A stretch of 50,219 nucleotides of DNA from Shigella phage phi2457T. The position numbers and the translations under genes are program-made. Location of the stretch: sequence record MH917278; one strand, 5' to 3'. Positions within the stretch are counted from its first letter, which is position 1. Each line of letters opens with the position of its first letter. This document shows, in pieces, positions 102 to 50,135 of the stretch. The notes beneath the pieces are model-generated. The model was not told where the DNA came from. It made no database searches and worked only from the letters and a program-made list of their open reading frames with translations.

Positions 102-120
102 TTTTAGCAAAACGTGCTAT
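102..120 (-). promoter_or_regulatory. conserved intergenic element copy (reverse orientation), ATAGCAC-N5-TTGCTAAAA
   Basis: Plus strand reads ttttagcaaaacgtgctat, reverse complement ATAGCACGTTTTGCTAAAA; matches the consensus repeated throughout the window. Confidence 0.4.
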
Positions 121-206
121 CGATTACACTTTAACTTGTCACGACTGTAATATTTGTCTAGAATCGCACTTGTGACAAAATTACGCACTGTGACGCATCA
201 CAATAG

Positions 207-285
207 ACATATAGATATATGTATATATATAATATATATAGTGTTTTTTTTATTTATATATATAGATAATCATATTGTAATAGTT
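207..285. repeat. AT-rich tract with TATATAGATAAT motif (shared with 30996-31057)
   Basis: Near pure A/T run atatagatatatgtatatatataatatatata...atatatagataatcatattg in noncoding left end. Confidence 0.5.
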
Positions 286-436
286 GTGTATAGCCGTCTT
301 ACATTGTCTAGCGTACTGTTGGCATATTTCTACCTGCATGTTTATATATACAGTACTTTTTTGAGGGCTATATATTTCTATAGTGACTCTAGACAGCTAG
401 ACAAATATTACACGGCTTAAAATTGGCTTGCAGTCG

Positions 437-465
437 TTGACAGCTCTACGTCGCTCTGTCACAAT
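437..465 (+). promoter_or_regulatory. candidate sigma70-type promoter upstream of first ORF
   Basis: Perfect TTGACA at 437-442, 17-bp spacer, TGtCACAAT extended -10-like at 457-465; by eye only. Confidence 0.35.
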
Positions 466-523
466 GGCAATTGTTGACATGTTATGACACCATTTACACA
501 CCAATAGACAAAGAGGGCACATT

Positions 524-1039
524 ATGAGCAATACCAATCAGGAATTAAAAATCACCGATATGATTCGACTAACCTGCGATGTAATGTACCGCGACAAAGG
601 TATGACCGAGTTCTCTTTCGTTGCTGATGATATGGCCATCGAGGCCGCGCGATTCTACTTCCGGGGCCAGGAGGTAAGCGATGCCGATCTTGAATCTGCC
701 GCTGCCGGATGGGTGGACCAGAACCAGGGGGAGGTAGAGAAGAGATTCAAGTCCGCTTTCATTACTCCGATCATTACCCGGCACTTTTGCAAGTACGGCA
801 AGGTGGCAAAGGTGAAGGTGGGCCGGAATGACGCCGCAATCACAATGATAACCGTTATCGTTACAGACGAAGAGGTTCCGGTTAAGAAGCGCCGTAGCCG
901 GAAAAAAGTTAGCCTGGCAGACTGCCTGGATTCGTTTGATGTTGATGTTATCAAGCTATCCGATAGCGAGTTAATGGTTCGTGATGTGAATGAGATCGTG
1001 CGACAGATGAAAGCACATATTGAAAAGTGTGGACTGTAA
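524..1039 (+). CDS. hypothetical protein (171 aa)
   Basis: ORF track; ATG preceded by aagaggg SD; first ORF after noncoding leader. Confidence 0.5.
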   Translation: MSNTNQELKITDMIRLTCDVMYRDKGMTEFSFVADDMAIEAARFYFRGQEVSDADLESAAAGWVDQNQGEVEKRFKSAFITPIITRHFCKYGKVAKVKVGRNDAAITMITVIVTDEEVPVKKRRSRKKVSLADCLDSFDVDVIKLSDSELMVRDVNEIVRQMKAHIEKCGL

Positions 1040-1053
1040 CGCCGATAGGTGAA

Positions 1054-1071
1054 ATAGCACTTTTTGTTAAA
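1054..1071 (+). promoter_or_regulatory. conserved intergenic element copy
   Basis: atagcactttttgttaaa immediately after stop of 524..1039. Confidence 0.45.
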
Positions 1072-1129
1072 GCCCGGTCGAGCGGATCGGGTATTATCTT
1101 CTCATCGACACGATACAGAGGAATCGAAG

Positions 1130-1324
1130 ATGGAAACGCAAATTGACGTAGTGGTTGTTCAGCGCGACTCAACTCATGAAAAGGGTCTGTTCAAGAAAGG
1201 AACCGAAATCACGATCGACATTGAGGATATGGTTGCATATCACTCGGGCCTTACCTGGAACGTGGTGCGCGTAGGCAGCGACTACAAACTCAAAGGCTTT
1301 AACACTTACTTTGCAGAGGTTTAA
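1130..1324 (+). CDS. hypothetical protein (64 aa)
   Basis: Internal ATG of ORF 1064..1324 (METQIDVV) preceded by gaggaatcgaag SD; upstream part of the ORF overlaps the conserved element. Confidence 0.45.
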   Translation: METQIDVVVVQRDSTHEKGLFKKGTEITIDIEDMVAYHSGLTWNVVRVGSDYKLKGFNTYFAEV

Positions 1325-1326
1325 TC

Positions 1327-1797
1327 ATGGCGACAATTACCGTATTTCTTGCTAAAGATGAGATTGATGGCGAAATGTCATTCTTCGCGTTTGAGCACAA
1401 GACCGGATCGCACTGGCATATGTACAGCCACTACACGGTCATCGATATCAACTCATACCGCGCAAACTCACTTACTGAAAAGCTGGGTTGCTTCATTGGA
1501 GCTATCAAGGTGAACAATGGCTGCGAGTGGGCAGATGAGCACGAAGATCGCCGCATGTGCAATATGATTAACCCGGTCTATCTTGAGTCGTTCGATCTTG
1601 ATGCTGATGTGGCTATTAAGGTGAGAAAGTCGGGTGAGTTGTTGCCAGGGATGCGTGTGCTGACTGGTTACTCGGGCCGTAAGGTGTGGCGCACTGTATC
1701 CAAGATTCGCCAGCGTTCGGCAACATGCTATAGCGTGTTCTTTGATGACGGCTGGAATGAGGTTGCTGGTAGTAACGTGAAGTATCTTACCAAATAG
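1327..1797 (+). CDS. hypothetical protein (156 aa)
   Basis: ORF track; SD gagg upstream; stop codon TAG lies inside the conserved element at 1794. Confidence 0.5.
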   Translation: MATITVFLAKDEIDGEMSFFAFEHKTGSHWHMYSHYTVIDINSYRANSLTEKLGCFIGAIKVNNGCEWADEHEDRRMCNMINPVYLESFDLDADVAIKVRKSGELLPGMRVLTGYSGRKVWRTVSKIRQRSATCYSVFFDDGWNEVAGSNVKYLTK

Positions 1798-1813
1798 CAC
1801 GAATTGTTAAAAC
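1794..1813 (+). promoter_or_regulatory. conserved intergenic element copy
   Basis: atagcacgaattgttaaaac; followed by hairpin ggggta/tacccc with ctatagt in the loop, then leader catcaaaacgagatacc and SD. Confidence 0.5.
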
Positions 1814-1875
1814 AGGATCGGGGTATCTTGCTATAGTTACCCCATCAAAACGAGATACCAACCAGAGGATTCACC

Positions 1876-2106
1876 ATGTCAATCATCAAGAACCAACAAG
1901 CCATCGACTCGACCAGCCACAACTGCTTTGCTATTTTCATCACTCGCGACAACAAGCGATTTGCTGTCAGGGCGGTACCGGGTGGGTACAAAACATACAT
2001 GGAAAATAACGGAAAGTGGGTGCGCTGCGAAAACCTTGCAAACTTCTTGGTATGGAATGGCGAGTTTCAAGGTCGTGATGATATCAGCACTTTAATTGAG
2101 GAATAA
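1876..2106 (+). CDS. hypothetical protein (76 aa)
   Basis: ORF track; SD agagga 8 nt upstream. Confidence 0.5.
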   Translation: MSIIKNQQAIDSTSHNCFAIFITRDNKRFAVRAVPGGYKTYMENNGKWVRCENLANFLVWNGEFQGRDDISTLIEE

Positions 2107-2112
2107 ATAATC

Positions 2113-2340: not shown

Positions 2341-2443
2341 ACTTCAATACAATAGCTCTATGGTCTGCCGTCTGGTTCTTCTGCATGGGTCACGTCATGG
2401 TCGGTATCGTGGTAATGCTTCTCCTGTGTGCGGGAGCGTTCGA

Positions 2444-2617: not shown

Positions 2618-2626
2618 GATTTAACA

Positions 2627-2818
2627 ATGGCTGATTTTATGCACCAAATGATTGCAGTATTCAAAGGTAGCGAAGATGAGGAAGTAAAGGAATGCTTTAC
2701 CTTCAACAAGTCTTATAGCGCGTCGCTAACCAGCTTCGGGAACATCTCATTGCTTGATGATAATGGCGACCCCTGGATATTCGACGAAGATACTGATTGC
2801 TTCGAAATTAAAGAATAG
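2627..2818 (+). CDS. hypothetical acidic protein (63 aa)
   Basis: ORF track; stop TAG lies in the conserved element at 2815. Confidence 0.45.
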   Translation: MADFMHQMIAVFKGSEDEEVKECFTFNKSYSASLTSFGNISLLDDNGDPWIFDEDTDCFEIKE

Positions 2819-2834
2819 CACTTTTTGTTAAAAC
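2815..2834 (+). promoter_or_regulatory. conserved intergenic element copy
   Basis: atagcactttttgttaaaac, hairpin ggggtt/aacccc with gatatagt in loop. Confidence 0.5.
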
Positions 2835-2888
2835 TCAATTCCGGGGTTGCGATATAGTAACCCCATCGATAACGAACGAGGATTTATC

Positions 2889-3095: not shown

Positions 3096-3106
3096 GGATT
3101 GAAATC

Positions 3107-3595
3107 ATGAAAATTAAATTACTTTGCACTGGCGGTTACAAGGGCTTTACTCGCGACCTGGAATCTGACCCTATTATCGTTGACGCCGTGAAGTGCAATG
3201 ATAGCATTGGCGGCTACCGCGTCAAAGTCGATGACCTGGTTAAAGCTGGCGTGTACGATCTCAATTGCGGCCTATCGGTTAGTCCGGTATTTGGCCCGGC
3301 TGACTTCAACGAGAAGGACGGAACTATGTTCTTTTTCGATTGGGAAGTGCGGGCAAACATCAAGCCTCGCAAGGTTCGACTTCTCAACAATGGCGGTTAT
3401 CCTATGCTACCAGGTTATGAGAATCGCACATTCCCGGTTATTGTTGACTTTGAAGAAATAACCACACACTTAGCTTATATCAACGGTGAACAGCTTCATG
3501 CTGTTGGATTCGTGGGAGGTATGAATCAAGAGGCGCTGTGCTTCTTCCATCGCGAATCAGAGCCGTTCGATATTGAGTGTGAGCTAGTCTACTAA
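3107..3595 (+). CDS. hypothetical protein (162 aa)
   Basis: ATG with SD gagga 8 nt upstream; N-terminus MKIKLLCTGGYKGF resembles the paralogous family. Confidence 0.5.
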   Translation: MKIKLLCTGGYKGFTRDLESDPIIVDAVKCNDSIGGYRVKVDDLVKAGVYDLNCGLSVSPVFGPADFNEKDGTMFFFDWEVRANIKPRKVRLLNNGGYPMLPGYENRTFPVIVDFEEITTHLAYINGEQLHAVGFVGGMNQEALCFFHRESEPFDIECELVY

Positions 3596-3611
3596 GCACG
3601 AATTGTTAAAA
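3594..3611 (+). promoter_or_regulatory. conserved intergenic element copy
   Basis: aagcacgaattgttaaaa, hairpin ggggatt/aatcccc. Confidence 0.45.
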
Positions 3612-3660
3612 GGGGATTCGTCCTGACTGGTACAATCCCCACATCGACCACCAAGAGGAA

Positions 3661-4152: not shown

Positions 4153-4301
4153 TGGCTGCATGGGTATTGATTATCTTGATGAGCACCGGGCCGGATCACG
4201 TATACATGGAAAGTCAGCAAGCATGTAACAAGGCTCGGGAAGTGATTGCAGAAAACAAGCCGTTCGGATACGAAGTAAAAACAATGTGTGTTAAACGATA
4301 G
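4152..4301 (+). CDS. putative small membrane protein (49 aa)
   Basis: ATG overlaps previous stop (ATAATGG); hydrophobic N-terminus MAAWVLIILMS; stop TAG is the TAG of the conserved element at 4298, as for neighbouring genes. Confidence 0.3.
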   Translation: MAAWVLIILMSTGPDHVYMESQQACNKAREVIAENKPFGYEVKTMCVKR

Positions 4302-4316
4302 CACGAATTGCTAAAC
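4298..4316 (+). promoter_or_regulatory. conserved intergenic element copy
   Basis: atagcacgaattgctaaac, hairpin aaggcca/tggcctt with gatatagt in loop. Confidence 0.5.
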
Positions 4317-4381
4317 CTTCCGCAAGGCCATTTGATATAGTGGCCTTATTGAAGCACGGCAACCAATCAGAGGAATCAGCT

Positions 4382-5642: not shown

Positions 5643-5861
5643 ATGGCTACTATCATGACAGCGGAAGATGCAGCGCGTGACGCAGTGGAAGGGATGCGCC
5701 CAAATACCTCCAGAATCGCACACTACTACAATTTTGACGTGTCGGCAGTGCAGCTGGTCCATGAAATTTTAAGGCTTCCACAAGTCGATTCAGCGCGACT
5801 GGTGACGTGCTTAAAAAATTATTTTTGCATCACTATTAAAACGAATAGCACGAATTGCTAA
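5643..5861 (+). CDS. hypothetical protein (72 aa)
   Basis: ORF track; weak SD; 3' end overlaps the conserved element. Confidence 0.35.
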   Translation: MATIMTAEDAARDAVEGMRPNTSRIAHYYNFDVSAVQLVHEILRLPQVDSARLVTCLKNYFCITIKTNSTNC

Positions 5862-5864
5862 AAC
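5845..5864 (+). promoter_or_regulatory. conserved intergenic element copy
   Basis: atagcacgaattgctaaaac, hairpin ggggaat/attcccc. Confidence 0.5.
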
Positions 5865-5918
5865 CTATCAAGGGGAATGCGCTATGATTCCCCTACACCA
5901 ACGAACGAGGGAACACTC

Positions 5919-6365
5919 ATGAAACATTTGATTTGCATTGATACACCTAACAATGAACACACCCTGCACGGCATTGGAATGTTCAAAGGCCACTACATGA
6001 CAGCAAGCATTTATGATGCGCATCGAGGCGATGGCGATCTAATGATTACTTCAAAAGAAGTTAATCCGTACATCATGCAGAATCTCGGGAACAATGAGTA
6101 TATGGCTTACGGCTGCAACGCGGTGTACAAGCATATCAAGATCCGCAAGCGCGTAGTTCGCGCATTCAAGAAGATTGCAATTAAATACTGGAAGATGAGC
6201 AAGAAGGACGCCGGAACATGGGCGCGTAACGTTGCTGATTCATACTTCTATCGTAACGGTGAGTCGTGCTACTTTTTGATCGATGATATTCATGACAATT
6301 ACGGCGGCTCATTCAGTCAGGAAGAGTTTGATAGCTGGGCTGAATACGAGATCAGTTGCTGGTAA
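5919..6365 (+). CDS. hypothetical protein (148 aa)
   Basis: Internal ATG (MKHLICID) after leader acgaacgagggaacactc. Confidence 0.5.
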   Translation: MKHLICIDTPNNEHTLHGIGMFKGHYMTASIYDAHRGDGDLMITSKEVNPYIMQNLGNNEYMAYGCNAVYKHIKIRKRVVRAFKKIAIKYWKMSKKDAGTWARNVADSYFYRNGESCYFLIDDIHDNYGGSFSQEEFDSWAEYEISCW

Positions 6366-6384
6366 TAGCACTAATTGCTAAAAC
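6365..6384 (+). promoter_or_regulatory. conserved intergenic element copy
   Basis: atagcactaattgctaaaac, hairpin aagggcat/atgccctt with gatagaa loop. Confidence 0.5.
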
Positions 6385-6448
6385 TTGCTCAAGGGCATTT
6401 GATAGAATGCCCTTCGTTGAGTTAAGCAACCAATCATAGGAATAAATC

Positions 6449-6982
6449 ATGGATAAAATTACCATTTGGGGTCAAACTATCAACCTGTTTCTCGGCACGC
6501 GACGCGTGGCAATCTTTGACTTTGACGGAACGCTTAGTGATGGATCAAAGCGCCTTCACCTGTTGCCGACAAAGGATTTGCACTTAACTGAAAGCTGGTC
6601 TGAGTTTAACCGAGCGGCAATATTTGATAACCCAATCCAGAGCACGATTGAGGTTATGAACTCTATGTTTGCTGCCGGGTATCACGTAATAGTTTTAACC
6701 GGGCGAAGTGATGAGGTTCGTTACGCATCTGAGTTATGGCTTAAGCATCACGGTGCGAGATATGATTACTTAGTCATGCGACCGCACACAGACAACAGGA
6801 AAGACACGGTGATGAAAGAAGAAGCGGTGCGAGCGATCGGTATTGAAAACATCCTGGCAGCTTGGGATGACTCACCGCAAATTATTCCATTATTCCGGTC
6901 GCTTGGAATAACAACATATGCGGTAGTTGACTATGGCGATAACATTCACGATCATTTAAAATCGCACGGGGTAGAGAAATGA
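6449..6982 (+). CDS. HAD-superfamily phosphatase-like protein
   Basis: Motif I FDFDGTL, motif II-like VLTGRS, motif IV-like WDDSP; resembles the phosphatase domain of polynucleotide kinase/phosphatase or a nucleotidase. Confidence 0.55.
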   Translation: MDKITIWGQTINLFLGTRRVAIFDFDGTLSDGSKRLHLLPTKDLHLTESWSEFNRAAIFDNPIQSTIEVMNSMFAAGYHVIVLTGRSDEVRYASELWLKHHGARYDYLVMRPHTDNRKDTVMKEEAVRAIGIENILAAWDDSPQIIPLFRSLGITTYAVVDYGDNIHDHLKSHGVEK

Positions 6983-7090: not shown

Positions 7091-7663
7091 ATGAAAACAG
7101 CTATCATTTTAAACGGCGCTCCTGGAGCAGGCAAGGACACTATCGGATGCATCCTGGCTGACACTTACGATCATGTAGCTTTGCGCAGCTTCAAAGCACC
7201 AATGTTTGAGATTGCTCGGGCAATCCTGGGTGAGGCTAACTACGAGTATTTCATGTTCTTGTATGGGAACCGTATATACAAAGAAGAGCCAGATTCCATC
7301 CTGAACGGTAAAAGCCCGCGCCAGTTTATGATCTGGATTAGCGAGGAAGTCATTAAGCCACAGTTCGGAAATCGCTTCTTCGGCATGCGAGCGGAAAGCA
7401 AGGTCAAAGAATCAGACTCCCTTTCGGTATTTACTGATGGTGGATTCAAAGATGAGGTATTGCAGATGATTGAAGGTGATATCCAGGTCAAGCTATGCCG
7501 AATCCACCGCAAAGGCTGCAACTTTGACAACGACAGTCGTGATTATATTTACCTGGAAGATATGATCGGGGTTAATGGTTATCAGGAGTGTGATTTCTTC
7601 TCTGTCGAAGGTCATCCAGAAATTACCGCTCAGCACATAGCCGCTACGTTCATCAACAAATAG
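7091..7663 (+). CDS. P-loop nucleotide kinase (dNMP-kinase-like)
   Basis: Walker A GAPGAGKDT at N-terminus; size ~190 aa typical of small NMP/dNMP kinases. Confidence 0.5.
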   Translation: MKTAIILNGAPGAGKDTIGCILADTYDHVALRSFKAPMFEIARAILGEANYEYFMFLYGNRIYKEEPDSILNGKSPRQFMIWISEEVIKPQFGNRFFGMRAESKVKESDSLSVFTDGGFKDEVLQMIEGDIQVKLCRIHRKGCNFDNDSRDYIYLEDMIGVNGYQECDFFSVEGHPEITAQHIAATFINK

Positions 7664-7679
7664 CACGAATTGCTAAAAC
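7660..7679 (+). promoter_or_regulatory. conserved intergenic element copy
   Basis: atagcacgaattgctaaaac with downstream gatatagt. Confidence 0.5.
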
Positions 7680-7735
7680 GTCGGTGGGGTGATTTGATAT
7701 AGTTACCTCATCGACAACGAAGAGAGAAAATCGAA

Positions 7736-9448: not shown

Positions 9449-9471
9449 AACCCGCTACGGCGGGTTTTTTT
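9449..9471 (+). terminator. rho-independent terminator
   Basis: Hairpin cccgctacggcggg followed by TTTTTTT. Confidence 0.65.
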
Positions 9472-9490
9472 ATGCCTGCAATATGGTAAA

Positions 9491-9509
9491 ATAGCACTAA
9501 ATGTTAAAC
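9491..9509 (+). promoter_or_regulatory. conserved intergenic element copy upstream of terminase small subunit
   Basis: atagcactaaatgttaaac preceded by ctgcaatatgg -10-like. Confidence 0.45.
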
Positions 9510-9524
9510 AAAGAGGGTATATTT

Positions 9525-16177: not shown

Positions 16178-16196
16178 CACAAAAACACTTTGACGC

Positions 16197-16215
16197 TTTA
16201 ACAAAAAGTGCTATT
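16197..16215 (-). promoter_or_regulatory. conserved intergenic element copy, inverted relative to local transcription
   Basis: tttaacaaaaagtgctatt (reverse complement AATAGCACTTTTTGTTAAA) upstream of major capsid gene. Confidence 0.4.
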
Positions 16216-16220
16216 ATTGA

Positions 16221-16248
16221 AGCCGTGAACATAATCACGGCTTTTTTT
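16221..16248 (+). terminator. rho-independent terminator
   Basis: Hairpin agccgtga/tcacggct followed by TTTTTTT. Confidence 0.6.
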
Positions 16249-16269
16249 ATTAACTAAGGAGAAGTAATC

Positions 16270-19922: not shown

Positions 19923-19960
19923 TTTCTGTAAAATCATCGTATCAAGTTTGCACTATTCTC

Positions 19961-19980
19961 TTTTAACAAAAAGTGCCATT
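19961..19980 (-). promoter_or_regulatory. conserved intergenic element copy, inverted relative to local transcription
   Basis: ttttaacaaaaagtgccatt upstream of tail chaperone gene. Confidence 0.4.
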
Positions 19981-31259: not shown

Positions 31260-31363
31260 TGAGCGATATAGACACGCAATTACACACCAATTACATGTAT
31301 TCGATTGACTAAACGCTGTTAATGGCTATAATGGATTCATCGTAAACGAGGGAGATAAACGAA

Positions 31364-32428: not shown

Positions 32429-32502
32429 ACGGCACAAATAGCTAAACAAATAATTAATGAGGTGTTATAATGCACCTCATACACCAATCAGGAGAAGTTA
32501 AG

Positions 32503-35443: not shown

Positions 35444-35462
35444 ATAGCACGAATTGCTAAAC
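35444..35462 (+). promoter_or_regulatory. conserved intergenic element copy within an extended inverted repeat
   Basis: atagcacgaattgctaaac followed 27 nt later by inverted half gtgctat; lies between two minus-strand genes. Confidence 0.4.
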
Positions 35463-35499
35463 ACAGATTTTATCATTGTGCTATTGGTCTTGCAACGGG

Positions 35500-36473: not shown

Positions 36474-36512
36474 ATAAAAAACGCGTAGAAGGATGTTAAC
36501 CCGCTACGCGTC
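36474..36512 (-). terminator. rho-independent terminator (minus strand)
   Basis: Hairpin acgcgtag...ctacgcgt preceded on plus strand by A7. Confidence 0.5.
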
Positions 36513-36519
36513 GTTTGTT

Positions 36520-36972
36520 TTAACTAAAAATGCTATTCGTCGTTCCAATATCTTCCTTCTTCACGACTCGCATAAACTTCTTGTTTTTGCATCGCTTCTC
36601 AAGGCACTTTCCGTTCCCATCAAACTTCAGATCGAATCGTAGCCATGCCGCCCGGAATCCTTTGCAACCCTGTCGGCGGTAAGCACGATGCGCTGCTTCA
36701 GCGCCTTGCCATGAAATCATATTGCGATCTTTCCAGCCTTGCACCGTCTGATTGCTAACTTTTAGAGCCTTTGCGCAGGCCGCAGGACCACCGTAATATT
36801 CGATAAGAGCATCCAATCGCGCTCTCAGTCCTGCGCGCGTTTCTTCTTTATGGATATAAAATCCGCAGCGCTGGCGAGGCTTTTTATCTTTACCGCGTCG
36901 TGTTCCGTTGTTACCATTGATGTGACGTTTATCGATTTCACCAGTAGACTCTGCGATACGTTTCATATTCAT
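36520..36972 (-). CDS. HTH DNA-binding protein (Cro/YdaS-like)
   Basis: Internal ATG with SD caggag; segment CAKALKVSNQTVQGWKDRNMIS looks like a helix-turn-helix. Confidence 0.45.
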   Translation of the reverse strand: MNMKRIAESTGEIDKRHINGNNGTRRGKDKKPRQRCGFYIHKEETRAGLRARLDALIEYYGGPAACAKALKVSNQTVQGWKDRNMISWQGAEAAHRAYRRQGCKGFRAAWLRFDLKFDGNGKCLEKRCKNKKFMRVVKKEDIGTTNSIFS

Positions 36973-36985
36973 CTTAATTCTCCTG

Positions 36986-37005
36986 TAGCACTTTTTGCTA
37001 AAAAC
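36986..37005 (+). promoter_or_regulatory. conserved intergenic element copy upstream of helicase
   Basis: tagcactttttgctaaaaac in divergent region. Confidence 0.45.
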
Positions 37006-37066
37006 GTTTACTGTATGCCGTGTATTATATCGTAAACGATACAACGATTCAAAGGATTAAATAGCC

Positions 37067-39085: not shown

Positions 39086-39498
39086 TTACAGATAAAGGCG
39101 ATTACTTAGAGTTTTACGAGCGAGATCCTAGCGACACGCGAAAGGAGGACGCTCATCAAGTAGACTGCGTGTCCTGGTTGAAATACAATTTTCCTCAGCT
39201 TCTATTTTGGCACACAGTTAACGAAGGTGAAAAAACAATCACTTCGGCACTTAGGGATGAGCAGGCTGGATTACTTAAAGGCGTATCAGACTTTGTTATT
39301 CTGATTGGTATAAACTCACGTTACCCGTTCGCAGCTATCGAACTCAAGCGGGTTAATAAGTCCGGCAAAGGAAAGGCATCACCAGTCAGCGATAAGCAAA
39401 GGGAGTTTCTCAAAAAGGTTCGGGATCGCGGTGGATTCTCTGCCGTTGCATACGGATTTGAGCAATTCAAGCTGGCAATATACGATTTAACGAAATAG
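39082..39498 (+). CDS. VRR-NUC domain nuclease (putative)
   Basis: 138 aa; ...AAIELKRVNKSGKGKASPVSDKQREFLKKVRDRGGFSAVAYG resembles VRR-NUC; ATGA overlap with helicase. Confidence 0.5.
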   Translation: MITDKGDYLEFYERDPSDTRKEDAHQVDCVSWLKYNFPQLLFWHTVNEGEKTITSALRDEQAGLLKGVSDFVILIGINSRYPFAAIELKRVNKSGKGKASPVSDKQREFLKKVRDRGGFSAVAYGFEQFKLAIYDLTK

Positions 39499-39513
39499 CA
39501 CTTTTTGCTAAAC
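39495..39513 (+). promoter_or_regulatory. conserved intergenic element copy
   Basis: atagcactttttgctaaac then hairpin and leader caccgaaacgagagga. Confidence 0.5.
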
Positions 39514-39565
39514 ATGCCGGAATGGATTCTGGCATTATTATCTCACCGAAACGAGAGGATTAAAA

Positions 39566-40279
39566 ATGAAAGACTTTAATGATATCGAAACCATTGATTT
39601 TGCTGAAACTGGTTGCTCATTTACTCGCGAAGCAATAGCATCAGGCGGTTATTATCAGGCATTGAAAACCCCAACCTGCAAAGAGATTTCAGGACGTCGA
39701 TACAAGGGAACCAATACGCCGGATGCTGTTCGTGATTTATGGTCAACTCCACGAGAGGTTATCGCATATCTTGAGGGGCGCTACGGAAAATATGATCTAG
39801 ACGCTGCGGCAAGCGAAGAAAATAAAGTTTGCGAGAAGTTTTATTCCCAGGAAACAAACTGCTTAAAACGTTGGTGGGGTAAAAATAAGCACGTATGGTT
39901 AAATCCTCCTTACAGTCGACCTGATATATTCGTCAAGAAAGCGATTGAGCAAATGGAGCACAACAACCAGATCGATATTCTTTTACCTGCCGATAACTCG
40001 ACGGCGTGGTTTACTGAGGCTCGACAGCACGCGGCTGAAATCATCTGGATTGAAGCTGATTTGACTGAGGATATTGACGGAAATGAATACGCACGATCCG
40101 GTCGTCTGGCTTTCATATCAGGTGAAACTGGAAAAGCCGTAGACGGCAACAATAAAGGTTCGGTTATTTTTATTATGCGCGAACTTAAAGAAGGTGAGAC
40201 GCAACAGACTCACTACATCCCAATCACAAGCATTTGTCCTTCCGTTAAAAACAAACGAGCAAAGGTGAGAAAAGTATGA
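39566..40279 (+). CDS. dam: DNA N6-adenine methyltransferase (Dam-like)
   Basis: 237 aa with catalytic DPPY-type motif NPPYS; typical phage Dam size. Confidence 0.75.
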   Translation: MKDFNDIETIDFAETGCSFTREAIASGGYYQALKTPTCKEISGRRYKGTNTPDAVRDLWSTPREVIAYLEGRYGKYDLDAAASEENKVCEKFYSQETNCLKRWWGKNKHVWLNPPYSRPDIFVKKAIEQMEHNNQIDILLPADNSTAWFTEARQHAAEIIWIEADLTEDIDGNEYARSGRLAFISGETGKAVDGNNKGSVIFIMRELKEGETQQTHYIPITSICPSVKNKRAKVRKV

Positions 40280-40527
40280 TGAGCGAAAAAATGGTTCCTG
40301 TTAAATTAACTGATCAAGGGTTATGGCTTCTTTATCGCGCTACGTGCTGCGAAATTATGGAGAGAAACGGATTAACTCAAGATGTTATTGGTTGCGATTT
40401 ATGGGAGTTTACAAGTTCTCTTGATATGTCGTTCGATGAGATAAAGAATAAACACATAGAGCATTGGCCTTCAATCATTCAGAAAGACGTAGAAGAACTT
40501 AAATCCGACACGATCTTACAGCACTAA
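40276..40527 (+). CDS. hypothetical protein (83 aa)
   Basis: ORF track; ATGA overlap with dam. Confidence 0.4.
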   Translation: MMSEKMVPVKLTDQGLWLLYRATCCEIMERNGLTQDVIGCDLWEFTSSLDMSFDEIKNKHIEHWPSIIQKDVEELKSDTILQH

Positions 40528-40537
40528 TTGCTAAAAC
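40519..40537 (+). promoter_or_regulatory. conserved intergenic element copy
   Basis: cagcactaattgctaaaac overlapping stop codon, then hairpin acccg/cgggt and tatagt. Confidence 0.45.
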
Positions 40538-40593
40538 TACCCGGCGAAAGTCGGGTATAGTTATTTCATCAAAACGAAATGAGGAATAATAAG

Positions 40594-40803: not shown

Positions 40804-41053
40804 ACGCGAGGTTTGGGAGCACGCGAAGGAATGCGGAATCTCAGACGATATAGCACTAATAGCGAAATATTTCGATATAAAGGATGTTAGCATTATATCA
40901 AATGGCAAGATTTCATTTATGGAAGATATGCCGAGAAAAATGCATAGAGTGCCAGCAACTCCGTCACTTGAGTTTTATCGTGAAGAAGGAAAGAGAATTG
41001 AGCGAGAACGAAAAGCAGCAAAAAACAACAAGCCTTCCAGGCTTAAATATTAA
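40781..41053 (+). CDS. hypothetical protein; possibly 5' part of a frameshifted gene continuing to 41285
   Basis: ORF 40781..41053 is overlapped in the +1 frame by ORF 40884..41285, which lacks a credible start after 41053. Confidence 0.3.
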   Translation: MLIKKQGKREVWEHAKECGISDDIALIAKYFDIKDVSIISNGKISFMEDMPRKMHRVPATPSLEFYREEGKRIERERKAAKNNKPSRLKY

Positions 41054-41363: not shown

Positions 41364-42515
41364 ATGTCACAAGCTAAAATCACTACCGAGCAACTTATCG
41401 AAGAGCGCATGAGCGGCCTTACACTTCGCGAGATCGCGGAAAAGTACGGTATGCACATCCGCACAGTTGAAGCGCGTCACGCCAAACTTGCAAAAGAAGG
41501 TCACTTCCACGGTAACGAGCATGTTGCTAAGAACGTACCGGAAGGATTCATGGTAAAAGGAACATCAACGATGATTCGCGGCGATGGGACCGAGGTAGTG
41601 CGATGGGTTAAGACCGATCAGGACCGAGAGAAGATTGCTGCAATGATGGAAGCAGCGCGTATTGCATTCTGTGAAGACTTGCCGCGAGCAAAACCAACCG
41701 AGCTACTCACCTCGCAAGGGCTTACAACCGCTATTGGCAAGCTGGCACTCTACCCGGTGTTCGATCTTCACATTGGCGCGCTTGCTCACAAGCATGAATG
41801 CGGAGAGAACTACTCTACAGACGTAGCGGAAAAAGTGCTGAATGACTTCTTTAACTACGCGATCGATATTGCCCCGAACGCAGAGAAGGCTGTTCTGTTA
41901 ATCGGAGGCGACTTCCTTCACTCAGACGGTCTTGATGCTGTTACCCCGGCAAGTGGTCACGTTCTGGATCAGGATTCACGATATGCGAAATTGGTGCATG
42001 TGGCTATTCGATCGGTGCGACGAGCTATCGACAAAATGCTGACTAAACACAAAGAGGTCGAAGTTCAGGTTATCGAAGGGAACCACGACCAGGCCGGAAT
42101 GATTTGGCTACGCGCTGCAATGGCTGCATACTATGAGGACGAGCCGCGAGTATTCGTTGACGTTAGTCCTATGATTCTGCATAAGACCCGCTGGGGAAAT
42201 ACCTTGTTGGGATACACTCACGGTCACACGATGAAAAAGGCAGACACGCGACTTGCAGCGATGGCAGCAGATTTCCGCGCAGATTTTGGTGAAAGCAAAT
42301 ACGTGTACACGCATAGCGGACACTGGCATCATCAGACAATTACTGAACACTCGTTAGGTATTGATGAAGTGCACGGTCAGTTAGGCGCGAAGGATGCATA
42401 CGCAGCACGCGGAGGGTGGCGCTCATATCGCCAGGCGGCGGTAATTGTTTACGATAAGCAATTTGGGGAAATCGGTCGTTTCATCTATCGTCCAGAAATG
42501 ACAGGATCGCACTAA
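41364..42515 (+). CDS. metallophosphoesterase-family protein with N-terminal HTH domain
   Basis: N-terminus LTLREIAEKYGMHIRTVEARH (HTH-like); phosphoesterase motifs DLHIGALAH, GGDFLHSDG, EGNHD (GNHD as in Mre11/SbcD-type enzymes). Confidence 0.5.
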   Translation: MSQAKITTEQLIEERMSGLTLREIAEKYGMHIRTVEARHAKLAKEGHFHGNEHVAKNVPEGFMVKGTSTMIRGDGTEVVRWVKTDQDREKIAAMMEAARIAFCEDLPRAKPTELLTSQGLTTAIGKLALYPVFDLHIGALAHKHECGENYSTDVAEKVLNDFFNYAIDIAPNAEKAVLLIGGDFLHSDGLDAVTPASGHVLDQDSRYAKLVHVAIRSVRRAIDKMLTKHKEVEVQVIEGNHDQAGMIWLRAAMAAYYEDEPRVFVDVSPMILHKTRWGNTLLGYTHGHTMKKADTRLAAMAADFRADFGESKYVYTHSGHWHHQTITEHSLGIDEVHGQLGAKDAYAARGGWRSYRQAAVIVYDKQFGEIGRFIYRPEMTGSH

Positions 42516-42526
42516 TTGATAAAAAC
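42507..42526 (+). promoter_or_regulatory. conserved intergenic element copy (degenerate)
   Basis: tcgcactaattgataaaaac then gggtatagt and leader catcgaaaacaaagagga. Confidence 0.4.
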
Positions 42527-42578
42527 ACCAGAAGGGATTCGGGTATAGTAACAACATCGAAAACAAAGAGGATATATC

Positions 42579-44206: not shown

Positions 44207-44270
44207 GATGTTTTCCTTCAGGTCGTTTAATTTCGATGAAACAAATATACCCGATACGAGATCGGGTGTT

Positions 44271-44288
44271 TTAACAAAAAGTGCTATT
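44271..44288 (-). promoter_or_regulatory. conserved intergenic element copy (minus orientation)
   Basis: Plus strand ttaacaaaaagtgctatt = reverse complement AATAGCACTTTTTGTTAA. Confidence 0.5.
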
Positions 44289-44807: not shown

Positions 44808-46376
44808 TTAACCCATCAGTCGAGGATTGATGAAAACAATATCATCAATGCGGCAAGTGTAGTTCATCTCTTCGAGCGTGATCAGCAGGCTATCTATTCT
44901 CTCAGATACTTTCTGTTGACCGTTGAACGGAGTAACGTTCCGGCACTTTGCAACGATGCTATGAATAGGAGCGCGCCCTTTATTCTTCTTTGCGATCTCA
45001 GTGATAACATCAATCAGCTTACGAGATTCAGCCTCATCACCAGCATACCCGGCAGCGCTGGCAGACGACAGATAAGTCCTGGAAAGCTCATTGAAGATCA
45101 TGATTGCTTCCTGCATCGTTTCAAGGTCAATCTCACGGTTGGAACGGTTCGGTGATTCACCCTCCCAATTCTTGATCGTGTGGAGAACTGAAGCAATACG
45201 CAAGGCGTGCTTATCGAACTTTCCGAGATGACCGCGTAGCATTGAGTGAGAGTATTTCCCACCTGCGGCGAAATCCGGCTCCATCGCCTGACGCGCAAGG
45301 TTTAATTCACGCATAGCATTACGACTTACAGAAAGAACAACGTTTTCCTCCTTCATAATGTTGTGCACGAGTCGATAATATTTACTCACCAATCCTCGAT
45401 CTACTTCCTTATACAGTGCATCACCATTTTCATCGCAAAGGATACGAGTACCTAAAAGAGGTTCCTCACGAACAAGAAGGAAGCGCTCAGATACGCCGAT
45501 GCCTCGTTGGCCTGCGTCCATGATACCCTTGATTGTTTCATCCTGCGCAATAACGCAGATGGAACCGACCGGGCAAAGGGACAAGTTGTTATCCTGGTTG
45601 GAACGCGCCACCTCCATATGGTTTTTATCCCACGCCTTAAGGATAAGCTCACTATTTGATTTCTTGTCTGAACCCCCATAAGTCAGGCCGAGCAATGTAT
45701 TGATTGCTGTCGCCTCATCAGAGATTACGGAGAAATGACCTTGAACAGCAGCTACTTTCGCTAGACCTTCTGGTGTAGGATCTGATACCGCGAAAACAAT
45801 ATCAGCCATCTTCTTGATTTTCTCTTCCAGTTTTTCTTTGTCCTCGTATAGCGCTGCCGTCGTGTTACCCTTCGGGTCGTTCTTAATTTCCTTCTCGACC
45901 TGACGTAGCTGACTGGTTAAACGGATACGTTCCTTTTTTCGCTCTTCATTCAGTCGCTGAATCTCTGCGCGCATAGGCGTAATCGCTGCGGAGTTAATCG
46001 CAGATTTACCTGTTGACGGTGGCTGGCTGATTACCATGTAAAGAGCGGTTGGTTGTTCTTCTCCGTGATATTGCACCCAAAACTTCCCGAGCATCGCGGC
46101 TGAGATGCACCCAATGAAATGAGCGTACGCAGACGAAACAGGGAACTGTACAGACTCGGCCTTTGCTTTTGCATATTCGAATACCAGGTTATCGCCACCT
46201 AACGAAATCAGAGGGAACTTATCGTTGCCGCTATTGATATCGATCGGATCTTGCCAAAATGAAACTGAGTCACCATAGCTGTTTTCACGAATTGCGATCG
46301 CCACCGGATTAACTCCAGTACTATTGGCGATCTCAATAATCTGTTGGTAATTCAGTTTTGGCTTAATATTAAACAT
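44808..46376 (-). CDS. large early protein with P-loop-like motif and central coiled coil (function unknown)
   Basis: Internal ATG (MFNIKPK) with SD aaggag; PPSTGKSA motif; Lys/Glu-rich coiled-coil segment; conserved element and hairpin upstream. Confidence 0.5.
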   Translation of the reverse strand: MFNIKPKLNYQQIIEIANSTGVNPVAIAIRENSYGDSVSFWQDPIDINSGNDKFPLISLGGDNLVFEYAKAKAESVQFPVSSAYAHFIGCISAAMLGKFWVQYHGEEQPTALYMVISQPPSTGKSAINSAAITPMRAEIQRLNEERKKERIRLTSQLRQVEKEIKNDPKGNTTAALYEDKEKLEEKIKKMADIVFAVSDPTPEGLAKVAAVQGHFSVISDEATAINTLLGLTYGGSDKKSNSELILKAWDKNHMEVARSNQDNNLSLCPVGSICVIAQDETIKGIMDAGQRGIGVSERFLLVREEPLLGTRILCDENGDALYKEVDRGLVSKYYRLVHNIMKEENVVLSVSRNAMRELNLARQAMEPDFAAGGKYSHSMLRGHLGKFDKHALRIASVLHTIKNWEGESPNRSNREIDLETMQEAIMIFNELSRTYLSSASAAGYAGDEAESRKLIDVITEIAKKNKGRAPIHSIVAKCRNVTPFNGQQKVSERIDSLLITLEEMNYTCRIDDIVFINPRLMG

Positions 46377-46432
46377 CACAATAAACTCCTTAGTTGACGG
46401 TGTAAATGATACACCGACAATGGTACACGCGT

Positions 46433-46450
46433 TTTGCAAAAAGTGCTATT
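46433..46450 (-). promoter_or_regulatory. conserved intergenic element copy (minus orientation)
   Basis: Plus strand tttgcaaaaagtgctatt; hairpin cggtgta/tacaccg lies between it and the gene start. Confidence 0.45.
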
Positions 46451-46869: not shown

Positions 46870-46931
46870 TTCGTTAACTCCTGATTGGTTATCTTGAATA
46901 AGGTCACTTTATCAAATGACCTTACGGCAAT

Positions 46932-46951
46932 ATTAACAAATCGTGCTATTT
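46932..46951 (-). promoter_or_regulatory. conserved intergenic element copy (minus orientation)
   Basis: Plus strand attaacaaatcgtgctattt; hairpin ggtca/tgacc downstream on minus strand. Confidence 0.45.
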
Positions 46952-47387: not shown

Positions 47388-47446
47388 CTTTAATTCCTTT
47401 GTTTGTTTGGTGTGGGAGTAATATACCTTACTCCCGGTTTGTTGTC

Positions 47447-47465
47447 TTTAGCTATTCGTGCTATC
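47447..47465 (-). promoter_or_regulatory. conserved intergenic element copy (minus orientation)
   Basis: Plus strand tttagctattcgtgctatc; hairpin gggagta...tactccc downstream on minus strand. Confidence 0.45.
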
Positions 47466-47924: not shown

Positions 47925-47940
47925 TATTCCCCCTAACCAG

Positions 47941-48141: not shown

Positions 48142-48505
48142 ACAATGCTTCCTTAACACGGTCCGCAATGCAGGAGTTAACGGCGATTGAATAGTTAGCT
48201 ACACCCCATAATGCAATATTGCCAAGCTCGGTCCGCATTGATGGGTTGTTTAGCTGAATGATTGTCTCTCCCGTGTCTTTATCGACGAAGCGAGACACGC
48301 CAGAATGGTCCACTACGCGGGTTACTCGGTTCACGCACTCCATTGCATCACTTACACCGTAATAAGCGCTTAGAGCGGCTCTCACTGCCTTCTCTTGCTT
48401 GTTGTAAATCTTGCGCGCAATGTTCTCGATCGCTACGTTCTCTTTCTCGTCAGTCTGGATTGCTGTGCTTGCTGAGAAGTCCAGGTTTATGAATTGCTTA
48501 ATCAT
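48134..48505 (-). CDS. hypothetical protein (123 aa)
   Basis: Internal ATG (MIKQFINL) with SD gaggg. Confidence 0.4.
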   Translation of the reverse strand: MIKQFINLDFSASTAIQTDEKENVAIENIARKIYNKQEKAVRAALSAYYGVSDAMECVNRVTRVVDHSGVSRFVDKDTGETIIQLNNPSMRTELGNIALWGVANYSIAVNSCIADRVKEALYE

Positions 48506-48509
48506 ATAA

Positions 48510-48740
48510 TTACCCTCTGAAACTATCAATAGTGTCGTTGATGTATTTCACTTGCGCCTCAACGTCAGACGTTGCGATATACTGGAATGTATCGTAATCA
48601 TCCCGCAAATCGACAAGCTCGACCTTTGTGTGATGCTCTTTCAGGCCGCCCATGTGACCGTAATGCGTGCGATAGACGATAAATCCCTCATCATTGGCTC
48701 GCTGGATTGCTTTCTTTAATCCGGGATGCTTAATTGCCAT
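48510..48740 (-). CDS. hypothetical protein (76 aa)
   Basis: Internal ATG (MAIKHPG) after conserved leader aaccaatcaggagaatcacc. Confidence 0.4.
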   Translation of the reverse strand: MAIKHPGLKKAIQRANDEGFIVYRTHYGHMGGLKEHHTKVELVDLRDDYDTFQYIATSDVEAQVKYINDTIDSFRG

Positions 48741-48797
48741 CTGGTGATTCTCCTGATTGGTTGATGCGTTAACCATACCCCGATCTCGCTCGGGGCG

Positions 48798-48816
48798 TTT
48801 AGCAATTCGTGCTATT
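48798..48816 (-). promoter_or_regulatory. conserved intergenic element copy (minus orientation)
   Basis: Plus strand tttagcaattcgtgctatt; hairpin ccccgagcgagatcgggg downstream on minus strand; contains stop of upstream gene. Confidence 0.5.
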
Positions 48817-49150
48817 AAGCAATATCGAACTCAGCGGCGTATGCTTCTTTGATGCCAGCTTCACGCATGGTGCGCTTACTGATTTTGCGCGGGAATTTGT
48901 ACTGGCTGTTAGGCATCACCCACCAGAAGCAAGCAGTCTCGCGAACGATTTCATATTTACCGTAACGAGTGAAGGTATCGCGTTCCATATCAGGCTGGTT
49001 AACACAGGTCAGGAATTTAACTGCCTTGTCTTCAGTTTTGATTTCTTCCCAAACGAAGGAGTCCATTCCGTTAACCTTGCAAGCAACCATGATGTACTCA
49101 ACGCCGTTTTCGATTTTGATGATTTCGTTACCGCGATTTTCGTATTTCAT
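48815..49150 (-). CDS. hypothetical protein (111 aa)
   Basis: ORF track; leader catcgaaacgagatacacatcaggag upstream resembles plus-strand leaders. Confidence 0.45.
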   Translation of the reverse strand: MKYENRGNEIIKIENGVEYIMVACKVNGMDSFVWEEIKTEDKAVKFLTCVNQPDMERDTFTRYGKYEIVRETACFWWVMPNSQYKFPRKISKRTMREAGIKEAYAAEFDIA

Positions 49151-49213
49151 TTTCTTGCTCCTGATGTGTATCTCGTTTCGATGAGGTAATTATGCCAAAT
49201 CACACCGATCGAG

Positions 49214-49232
49214 TTTTAACAAAAAGTGCTAT
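49214..49232 (-). promoter_or_regulatory. conserved intergenic element copy (minus orientation)
   Basis: Plus strand ttttaacaaaaagtgctatc. Confidence 0.5.
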
Positions 49233-49920
49233 CCGCGATTGCTTTGAAAAATCCCCTGGGCGACAGAGATCGTATCAACTTAGTTTTGGCAGATTTGCCG
49301 CCTAGCTTACTGTGCTGTGCAGAGTACCCGTCAGGTATGCTTACAGGTTTTCTCTCTGGCATGACAAAATCGTCAGAGGTCCAAAGGCAAGTTTTCTTCG
49401 GGTAAGCATCGCGCGGCGCAATATACATCGGGAACCAGGGGTGTGAGTCATTCTCAGGAAGATAGCCGCCATACTCCCAGGGATTGAAGGAGTGATTTGG
49501 TTTTCTCCAGGCAGATGACAGGACGCTAACCGGATTCTCAATGATGTAAGTCACACCCAGGCTATCGCCAATGTTCGCGGCAATCCTTGCGGTGGCAACG
49601 GCCTTTTCCTGGAATAACGGATCGCGTTCACGCTTTCTTGCGAAGTGGGCGGCACCGCTAACAGCCAGGTCGGTACACGGCGGGAAGGCCATAATGAAAT
49701 CCGGCTTGCCATACACGCCAGCTATAGCATCACGCTCAAACGCTGCGTCAATGAACACGTTCACATACTCAATGTTCGGATGCTCCACCCGGGCATTGTA
49801 CTTTGCATAATCACCGTGATCGGCTCCGTCAAAGTTGAAGCACATCACCTTGTGACCTTGCTTAGCCAGTTCATGACCAGCAAGACCGGAACCGTCGAAT
49901 AGCGACCAAATCAACTTCAT
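49216..49920 (-). CDS. DNA cytosine-C5 methyltransferase-like protein (compact)
   Basis: Motif I-like LFDGSGLAG, motif IV-like FPPCTD (catalytic Pro-Cys), motif VI-like IIENP; only 234 aa so target-recognition and C-terminal motifs are unclear. Confidence 0.45.
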   Translation of the reverse strand: MKLIWSLFDGSGLAGHELAKQGHKVMCFNFDGADHGDYAKYNARVEHPNIEYVNVFIDAAFERDAIAGVYGKPDFIMAFPPCTDLAVSGAAHFARKRERDPLFQEKAVATARIAANIGDSLGVTYIIENPVSVLSSAWRKPNHSFNPWEYGGYLPENDSHPWFPMYIAPRDAYPKKTCLWTSDDFVMPERKPVSIPDGYSAQHSKLGGKSAKTKLIRSLSPRGFFKAIADSTFC

Positions 49921-50060
49921 TTTGCGATCTCCTTTTTGTAGTGATTCAGCTTGTCGATGATTGACTTCGACTTGTTGGCTAGCGCCATGTCAGAGAACAG
50001 AGCCACGCGATAGATGTGTTCGTAACGATTAATGGCCGCGTTGATGTTTGCAATATTCAT
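49920..50060 (-). CDS. possible small ORF (46 aa)
   Basis: ATG after conserved leader aaccaatcagaggaatcgac; stop overlaps ATG of the methyltransferase-like gene (ATGA). Confidence 0.3.
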
Positions 50061-50118
50061 GTCGATTCCTCTGATTGGTTGATGAGATGAATAATACCCG
50101 ATCTACCCGGGTGACGTG

Positions 50119-50135
50119 TGGCAAAAAATGCTATT
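50119..50135 (-). promoter_or_regulatory. conserved intergenic element copy (degenerate, minus orientation)
   Basis: Plus strand tggcaaaaaatgctatt; hairpin and leader follow on minus strand. Confidence 0.35.

Follow-up and report, generated by a model that had tools for sequence, protein, structure and literature searches.

T1 is among the original T phages, and we know of no work that has defined its promoters. The subject here is a short repeated element in a stretch of 50,219 nucleotides from Shigella phage phi2457T (sequence record MH917278), hereafter the window, which is a near-complete T1-like genome (Tunavirus, Drexlerviridae). The closest counterpart described in a phage is that of TLS, whose re-annotation in 2024 reported a 21-nt direct repeat, aaATAGCACnnnTTGnTAAAA, in 21 places and oriented along transcription (PMC11447400). 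The TLS repeat precedes start codons by about 76 nt and was noted also in T1, Rtp and Rogue1; the same paper found just three sigma70-like promoters and left the function of the repeat open, naming stoperators, enhancer-binding sites or UP elements (PMC11447400). The relationships set out below indicate that the element of the window is, with high probability, a marbox in the class II arrangement of the micF promoter, read by the host regulators Rob, MarA or SoxS, or by RamA where that protein is present.

The marbox is also called the soxbox or robbox, and RamA is a further AraC-family reader of it in Klebsiella and Salmonella. Its consensus, AYnGCACnnWnnRYYAAAY, is degenerate and asymmetric (PMC3709825), and a form derived from chromatin immunoprecipitation reads GCAnnWWnTGnnAAA (PMC12052159). 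Class II boxes are forward and overlap the -35 element, class I boxes are reversed and lie further upstream, and repression results where a box sits within the promoter spacer, pbpG being an example (PMC12052159). The site is read by a monomer with a pair of helix-turn-helix (HTH) motifs via two subsites, A (GCAC) and B (CAAA), and the micF box is centred at -41.5 (PMC9638938). In the cryo-electron microscopy complex of Rob with micF, Rob contacts -47G and -45A and blocks sigma region 4 from the -35 element (PMC9178005). A literature search found no paper connecting the Drexlerviridae repeat with the marbox. The repeat itself is not new, having been described for TLS in 2024, and the marbox is textbook knowledge; what is apparently new is the link between both.

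Copies of the element in the window

An earlier note on the window, made from the sequence alone, wrote the element as ATAGCAC-N5-TTG(C/T)TAAAAC. That formula has 0 matches in the window, even with 2 mismatches allowed, because its spacing was miswritten (N5 for N3): read from the coordinates of the listed copies, the true form is ATAGCAC-N3-TTGYTAAAAC, identical to TAGCA-N5-TGCTA. Searched as ATAGCACNNNTTGYTAAA with at most 3 mismatches, the window yields 32 matches where 3.1 are expected, and 0 of 100 shuffles yield as many. A weight matrix built from 25 copies and applied with a cut-off of 14 bits finds 28 matches, against 0.2-0.3 expected per 50 kb on both strands. All 22 copies listed in the earlier note are real, with positions right to within 1 nt, and far above chance; copies at 16214(-), 19979(-), 32429(+), 36536(-) and 40850(+), and a weak one at 39886(+), were absent from its list. 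The co-orientation with genes that it described holds for the promoter-type copies and fails for 120(-), 16214(-), 19979(-) and 35444(+), which are opposed to their neighbouring genes. The overlap with stop codons was correctly seen, 16 of the 25 strong boxes containing or touching the stop of a long upstream reading frame.

The weak box-like copy at 39886(+) lies within the dam gene, and weak box-like sequences (ATAGCACAAAAAGGTAAACATCATG) also stand at the start of the tail J gene, at 25021 in T1, 24908 in TLS, 40987 in YP10S2 and 5018(-) in phiJLA23. The conservation of these sequences probably reflects coding or ribosome-binding sequence rather than functional boxes.

Predicted promoter architecture

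A -10-like hexamer (TATAGT, TATTAT, CATAAT, TAAAGT and others) follows 18 bp past the 20-bp box, which is 22 bp past TTGYTA. Twenty window copies carry a hexamer of at least 4 bits at the 18-bp offset, as do 1.3% of positions genome-wide, and no enrichment of -10-like hexamers was found at any other offset from the window copies. For a wider view, 110 non-identical modules from six genomes were aligned on the hexamer. The distance from box to hexamer is 18 bp in 94 of them, 19 bp in 11 and 17 bp in 5, and the conserved block, aAATAGCAC-KWW-TTGYTAAAAC, spans -52 to -31. Three further features, none of them selected by the filter, recur across the alignment: G at -14, the mark of an extended -10 (95 of 110 modules), C at -1 (75 of 110) and A at +1 (92 of 110). 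The last two place the predicted start 7 nt past the hexamer. No -35 hexamer at the normal 17-bp spacing was found in the aligned modules, and in the modules of the window a ribosome-binding site and start codon follow 20-35 nt past the predicted start.

By its sequence context, the element thus forms the predicted upstream part of a composite promoter that host RNA polymerase would use. The suggestion in the earlier note of a promoter-associated, directional element serving that polymerase is supported at this level.

Likeness of the element to the marbox

Compared with the 19-mer marbox consensus, 18 of the 110 modules have 0 mismatches, 71 have 1, 15 have 2 and 6 have 3, the single mismatches being mostly A for Y at position 19. 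The 15-mer form, GCAnnWWnTGnnAAA, is perfectly matched by 83 of the 110, and the two phage positions restricted to A/T (-42 and -41) are the two W positions of the consensus. With the -10 hexamer numbered -12 to -7, GCAC falls at -47 to -44 and TAAA at -36 to -33, and the two recognition elements of a marbox, a GCAC A site and a YAAA B site with an A/T spacer between them, can be recognized in the phage sequence.

The likeness holds in the reciprocal direction. A matrix built only from phage copies was run against the mar and micF control regions of E. coli K-12 (472 bp), where 0.002 chance matches are expected. The mar box, ATGCCACGTTTTGCTAAATC, is the unique top match, backward, at 15.2 bits (next best -1.3), and the micF box, ACAGCACTGAATGTCAAAAC, is the unique top match, forward, at 14.5 bits (next best -1.5). 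Among the matches in its own region the fumC class II box ranks first; it has 0 consensus mismatches and scores just 5.4 bits. The degenerate sodA box was not recovered by the phage matrix (below 1 bit), so the matrix models only strong mar-type boxes. At E. coli micF the order is box, 18 bp, TAGAAT and 7 nt to the annotated 5' end, with the same distance from box to hexamer as in the phage. Like other class II boxes, those of the phage modules are forward, overlap the -35 region and keep a fixed short distance to the -10. The absent -35 hexamer fits the occlusion by Rob of sigma region 4 from the -35 element (PMC9178005).

These matches change how several remarks of the earlier note are to be read. 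What it did not recognize as a described motif is a repeat published for TLS (PMC11447400) that also fits the marbox consensus (PMC3709825, PMC12052159). The 5-bp inverted repeat, which it took to suit a dimeric protein, appears incidental, marboxes being asymmetric and read by a monomer (PMC9638938, PMC9178005), and the directionality that it noticed would follow from an asymmetric marbox read by a monomer with two HTH motifs.

As a marbox promoter, each module would work in a simple way. A host activator would bind GCAC (-47 to -44) and TAAA (-36 to -33), replacing the contact between sigma region 4 and the -35 element; it would recruit host RNA polymerase, touching the alpha C-terminal domain as well as sigma region 4, and transcription would start at the conserved A, 7 nt past the hexamer. 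Under antibiotic, oxidative or bile stress, MarA, SoxS and RamA would take over from Rob or add to it. On this reading the phage of the window probably relies on stress regulators of its host to express the majority of its early and middle genes.

Conservation across Drexlerviridae

Over a 12-kb stretch of the window, Shigella phages Sfin-4, Sfin-5, Sfin-6 and Sfin-2 show 99.1% identity, and many other T1-like phages show 90-95%. The annotation of the close relative Sfin-3 has the T1 layout, with small early genes on the left (plus strand) and on the right (minus strand), a central structural block, and replication, recombination and lysis genes at about 31-44 kb. The annotation of a close relative contains no repressor or integrase.

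The earlier note had let the standing of the element hang on its presence in relatives, and the element recurs in six other Drexlerviridae genomes. Scanned with a matrix derived from the window, these give 29 matches in Sfin-3 (Tunavirus), 19 of them with a phased -10; 24 in T1 (Tunavirus), 15 with a phased -10; 22 in TLS (Tlsvirus), 16 with a phased -10; 17 in KP36 (Webervirus), 14 with a phased -10; 17 in phiJLA23 (Rogunavirus), 8 with a phased -10; and 23 in the unclassified Yersinia phage YP10S2, 17 with a phased -10. When viral contigs were scanned for the composite signature, multi-copy matches occurred, among the matches listed, only on contigs of 7-53 kb, several of which were separately confirmed as T1 relatives; larger contigs had two single matches among those listed, about chance level. 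In phages of Escherichia, Shigella, Klebsiella and Yersinia, the proteins of which share just 48-80% identity, the box does not vary, and such invariance across phages of four host genera fits a conserved host reader.

Hairpins overlapping the promoters

A G+C-rich hairpin overlaps nearly every promoter, for example at 1074-1092, 1819-1843 and 40540-40557 in the window and at 38973-39001, 39998-40024 and 41980-42007 in T1. The segment from -31 to +8 of the modules folds at -11.5 kcal/mol, compared with -4.8 kcal/mol when shuffled (p = 3e-30), and the sense RNA folds at -11.5 kcal/mol where the antisense folds at -9.2 kcal/mol (p = 4e-9); G·U pairs number 110 in the sense and 72 in the antisense folds. 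The sequences of the arms vary and the pairing is kept, which points to a structure in read-through RNA and not to a protein site. Two registers are found. The hairpin either ends just before the T-rich -10, in the manner of a terminator, or encloses the -10 within its loop; three hairpins of the former register are annotated as terminators in the T1 record. New transcripts would avoid the hairpin because they start beyond its 3' arm or inside it. The overlap of hairpin and promoter resembles a compact terminator/promoter insulator between gene cassettes.

Boxes at canonical promoters and other exceptions

The modules of the window and the boxes that depart from the class II arrangement are collected in Table 1. 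A scan of the window for canonical sigma70 promoters found few, and three of the top four have a reversed box. At 36985..37052 a helicase promoter and the promoter of a regulator gene stand face to face. Their -10 hexamers overlap by 5 bp on opposite strands, which implies that only one of the two would be occupied at a time, and the box of the helicase promoter lies at +12 to +31 of the regulator transcript. This arrangement is conserved in five genomes, those of the window, T1, TLS, KP36 and phiJLA23. At the major-head promoter, the box in the spacer supplies the TGc extension of the -10; the arrangement is kept in T1 and TLS, recognizable in YP10S2 and decayed in KP36. A hairpin with a T-run (16190-16250) comes directly after this promoter, and the pairing of promoter and hairpin is conserved in T1, TLS and YP10S2. 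The predicted start is within the 5' arm, so that major-head transcripts would escape a terminator that stops upstream read-through. By analogy with pbpG (PMC12052159), the reversed boxes at the regulator, major-head and tail-fibre promoters should occupy repressing positions. One factor could then, speculatively, activate early and middle promoters while holding some late promoters off.

The box at 101..120 lies backward at about -71 to -52 (centre about -61.5) relative to a predicted promoter, an arrangement also found in T1, and its sequence context fits a class I (mar-type) arrangement with a predicted promoter downstream. Between this predicted left-end promoter and the first gene, which begins at 524, lies an A/T-rich leader, about 350 nt long, with short repeats (136-520); the leader region may hold packaging or replication signals too. 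No promoter partner was found for the box at 9491..9510, which stands at the entry to the late operon. The module at 19929..19979, which points antisense into the major tail gene and is kept in T1 (18850), may give rise to antisense RNA within the structural block. The promoter of the recE-erf operon is of the sigma70 type, close to consensus and without a box (31305-31332, plus strand, TTGACT-16-TATAAT), and the leader of the operon shares the 5' motif CATCGTAAACGA seen after box-dependent promoters.

Table 1 Boxes of the window with their predicted -10 elements or promoter partners. The distance between box and -10 is given for some of the modules; TG marks an extended -10.
Feature	Strand	Box	Predicted -10 or promoter	Predicted start	Context
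Class II module 1054..1104	+	1054-1073, ATAGCACTTTTTGTTAAAGC	18 bp, TATTAT 1092-1097	~1104	
Class II module 1794..1844	+	1794-1813	TATAGT 1832-1837, TG	~1844	TAG inside box is stop codon of gene 1327..1797
Class II module 2815..2865	+	2815-2834	TATAGT 2853-2858	~2865	
Class II module 3593..3643	+	3593-3612, weaker (TAAGCAC..., 19.6 bits)	TACAAT 3631-3636, TG	~3643	
Class II module 4298..4348	+	4298-4317, 0 mismatches to 19-mer marbox consensus	TATAGT 4336-4341, TG		
Class II module 5845..5895	+	5845-5864	TATGAT 5883-5888		
Class II module 6365..6415	+	6365-6384	TAGAAT 6403-6408, TG		Upstream of polynucleotide kinase gene 6449..6982
Class II module 7660..7710	+	7660-7679	TATAGT 7698-7703, TG		
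Antisense class II module 19929..19979	-	19960-19979 (ATGGCAC...)	TACGAT 19936-19941, TG		After major tail gene
Module 32429..32478	+	32429-32448 (15.8 bits; 0 consensus mismatches)	17 bp, TATAAT 32466-32471, TG		Upstream of erf
Module 36486..36536	-	36517-36536, degenerate			Box contains regulator stop codon; then terminator, loop with TAACAT; upstream of primase gene
Class II module 39495..39545	+	39495-39514, 0 mismatches	CATTAT 39533-39538, TG		Upstream of dam
Class II module 40518..40568	+	40518-40537, ACAGCACTAATTGCTAAAAC	TATAGT 40556-40561		Box near micF ACAGCACTGAATGTCAAAAC
Weak module 40850..40900	+	40850-40869 (17.2 bits)	TAGCAT 40888-40893, TG		Kept in T1 (40308)
Class II module 42506..42556	+	42506-42525 (ATCGCAC...)	TATAGT 42544-42549		
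Class II module 44237..44287	-	44268-44287	TATATT 44244-44249		
Class II module 46399..46449	-	46430-46449	TATCAT 46406-46411		Upstream of DNA helicase gene 44808..46439
Class II module 46899..46949	-	46930-46949	TAAAGT 46906-46911, TG		
Class II module 47413..47464	-	47445-47464	19 bp, TATATT 47420-47425		
Class II module 48765..48815	-	48796-48815, 0 mismatches	TATGGT 48772-48777		
Class II module 49182..49232	-	49213-49232	CATAAT 49189-49194, TG		
Class II module 50084..50134	-	50115-50134, degenerate, ATAGCATTTTTTGCCACACG	TATTAT 50091-50096		First right-arm early operon promoter
Face-to-face switch 36985..37052, helicase promoter	+	36985-37004	TATTAT 37023-37028		
Face-to-face switch 36985..37052, regulator promoter	-		-35 TTGAAT 37052-37047, 17 bp, -10 TATAAT 37029-37024		
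Major-head promoter	+	16195..16214 (-), reversed	TTGACG 16190-16195, 16 bp, TATTAT 16212-16217		Box fills spacer
Tail-fibre promoter	-	35444..35463 (+)	TTGCAA 35495-35490, 17 bp, TAAAAT 35472-35467		Box at -4..+15; also in T1
Box without own -10	-	101..120	Plus promoter TTGTCA 136-141, 17 bp, TAGAAT 159-164		Box 15 bp upstream of -35
Box without -10	+	9491..9510, strong			Between terminator (9451-9472) and terS ribosome-binding site; also in T1 (8362)

Candidate readers and alternative explanations

Being expressed constitutively and at a high level (PMC9178005), Rob is the likeliest reader where cells are not under stress. An unfiltered search of the six-frame reading frames of six genomes, with a profile of MarA, SoxS and the N-terminal domain of Rob, gave no consistent MarA/SoxS/Rob-like protein; the best match (E = 0.13) is a tape-measure reading frame and is not repeated across genomes. 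No AraC-type Pfam domain was found among 20 proteins scanned. With no AraC-type protein found in the phages, it is probably Rob, MarA or SoxS of the host that reads the box.

Several points weigh against a marbox read by these host factors. Position 19 of the box is usually A where the consensus has Y. The phage boxes are also far more uniform than those of the host, at 25-34 bits compared with 15 for mar, 14.5 for micF, 5 for fumC and less than 1 for sodA, and this uniformity could instead reflect a more selective reader of other identity. About half of the promoters carry a full TG extended -10 and may have activity independent of an activator, and a few boxes, such as that at 9491, have neither a -10 nor an obvious promoter partner. 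Rob is reported to be largely sequestered until induced, and its free level may be low. A literature search found neither rob, marA or soxS as T1 host factors nor any mapping of transcription start sites or transcriptome for a member of the Drexlerviridae.

The alternative that survives best, and which we consider improbable, is that a phage protein reads the box and that the likeness to the marbox is convergent or incidental. The earlier note had pointed to two HTH proteins, encoded at 36520..36972 and 41364..42515, and both genes are core in the family; phylogenetic profiling returns family members only, at >=61% identity, and does not separate the two by presence or absence. The first, the regulator introduced above, is a 150-aa protein with a YdaS/P22-Cro-type HTH, present in 824 phage records. 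It has its own canonical promoter, and in every genome examined a box lies between that promoter and the ribosome-binding site, which looks like autoregulation. That box, however, can simply be taken as the class II box that belongs to the helicase promoter, divergent and overlapping, and the recognition helix differs in every subfamily (NQTVQG, LKTVWG, IQVVQQ, RQAVEE, YGTVRH) whereas the DNA box is identical in all, which weakens the regulator as a candidate. The second is a 383-aa protein (plus strand) that joins an N-terminal HTH of the sigma70-region-4/LuxR type, at residues ~8-45, to a calcineurin-like metallophosphoesterase domain, and it bears the PHROGs label 'DNA repair exonuclease'. 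Its HTH helix is well conserved (R33, V35, E36 and R38 do not vary), and the KP36 ortholog of the protein passes the Pfam Sigma70_r4_2 cutoff, but nothing connects the protein with the box. The much greater uniformity of the phage boxes would suit a dedicated phage reader of either kind. A single HTH, on the other hand, would leave unexplained an asymmetric site of 20 bp, in two parts, that agrees base for base with the site of a two-HTH monomer and keeps the micF spacing, and we regard both proteins as unlikely readers.

Very unlikely, in our estimate, is a role mainly as decoys, in which about 25 high-affinity sites per genome copy take up MarA, SoxS and Rob and thereby dampen the stress response of the host, the activation of phage promoters being secondary. 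The boxes are numerous and stronger than host boxes, several of them lack a -10, and their copy number climbs with replication. For a sponge, however, the base-exact distance to the -10 (about 85% of modules in six genomes), the fixed orientation and the start dinucleotide would all be superfluous.

We give hardly any weight to the view that host RNA polymerase uses the element alone, without an activator, as a UP-like element, a displaced -35 (TTGYTA) or a promoter of the sigma54 type. UP elements were suggested by the TLS authors (PMC11447400), but they are A/T tracts located from -40 to -60, where the alpha C-terminal domain touches them, and here GCAC and the G at -38 are nearly invariant. 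TTGYTA resembles TTGACA, and extended -10 promoters can work without a -35; as a -35 it was rejected, lying 22 bp from the -10 where sigma70 tolerates 16-19 bp. The sigma54 consensus is TGGCAC-N5-TTGC, with GG and GC 10 bp apart. TAGCAC-N3-TTGC resembles it with a spacing 2 bp short and AG for GG, and what is phased to the box is a sigma70-type TAnnnT with a TG extension.

The least credible explanation, an RNA-level signal for processing or stability in read-through transcripts such as the earlier note had allowed for, draws on the overlap of the box with stop codons and on the sense-strand RNA signature of the hairpin that follows, but that signature belongs to the separate, promoter-overlapping hairpin, with its varying sequence and kept pairing, and not to the box, which keeps its sequence, is phased to a DNA-level -10 and occurs in both orientations at canonical promoters.

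Other identities were compared and set aside. A few reversed copies of the box do sit in leader regions; a stoperator of the mycobacteriophage L5 type, a repressor site dispersed through the transcription units of a temperate phage and in no set relation to a -10, is at odds with a -10 that keeps its 18-bp phase in about 85% of modules and with the annotation of a close relative, where neither repressor nor integrase appears. The sites of CRP, FNR, Fis, IHF, LexA, DnaA and lambda CII (TTGC-N6-TTGC) and the -35 element of extracytoplasmic function sigma factors misfit in sequence or position. The MotA box of T4 middle promoters has its centre at -30, stands 11-13 bp from the -10 and is read by MotA with AsiA, both encoded by the phage; the element studied here has its centre at about -41 and stands 18 bp from the -10.

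Implications

Reading the element as a class II marbox yields a promoter map, with predicted starts, of about 20 sites per genome throughout the family, and it names candidate host factors. If confirmed, it would mean a striking dependence of virulent phages on host regulators of stress and antibiotic resistance. Phage gene expression might then respond to salicylate, paraquat, bile salts or marR mutations, the last being common in clinical isolates, with a bearing on phage-antibiotic combinations and on the control of T1 contamination, and the boxes would be compact, strong and inducible promoter parts.

With reversed boxes in its late promoters, the phage may have a simple switch from early to late expression. 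A more far-reaching proposal, tentative and on the whole doubtful, is that the T1 family has handed nearly all of its early and middle transcription to host stress regulators, that the same factor on reversed boxes holds late promoters off, and that replication titrates the activator, or an early phage protein inactivates it, to flip expression from early to late. Were this true, phage development would be tied to antibiotic, oxidative and bile-salt stress of the host, and the rob, marA or soxS status of the cell would modulate its susceptibility.

Comparison with known systems

The TLS repeat, aaATAGCACnnnTTGnTAAAA, is the same element as that of the window in its consensus, its orientation, its distance of about 76 nt to start codons and its A/T/G central-triplet subgroups; unlike here, it was linked neither to a phased -10 nor to the marbox (PMC11447400). 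As in the phage, the class II marbox promoters of E. coli (among them micF, fumC and lpxC P2) have a forward, asymmetric 20-bp box with GCAC at -47 to -44 and a real -35 that is weak or absent (PMC12052159, PMC9178005, PMC9638938). The phage differs in having about 20-28 predicted sites per 50 kb, in a virulent genome and far nearer to consensus and to one another; its boxes usually come with an extended -10, an overlap with the upstream stop codon and an interleaved hairpin. In class I promoters the reversed box has its centre between -56 and -85. For this arrangement the model is marRAB, where the box lies 16 bp upstream of the -35, at about -72 to -53, compared with 15 bp and about -71 to -52 for the phage box at 101-120. 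The latter is identical to the mar box at 16 of 20 positions and, unlike marRAB, represents a single class I-type case per phage genome, with a predicted promoter and a leader of about 350 nt.

The likeness extends to promoters with other activators. Class II promoters of the galP1 type, activated by CRP, share with the phage modules a site centred near -41.5, an extended -10 and the lack of a functional -35, but the CRP site is symmetric, 22 bp long and bound by a dimer, whereas the phage site is asymmetric and dependent on orientation. The middle promoters of T4 offer the nearest phage parallel in design, with a phage-wide upstream element that replaces the -35 and a sigma70 -10 that is kept. 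There, the MotA box is read by a phage protein, whereas the element of the T1-like phages fits the site of a host factor.

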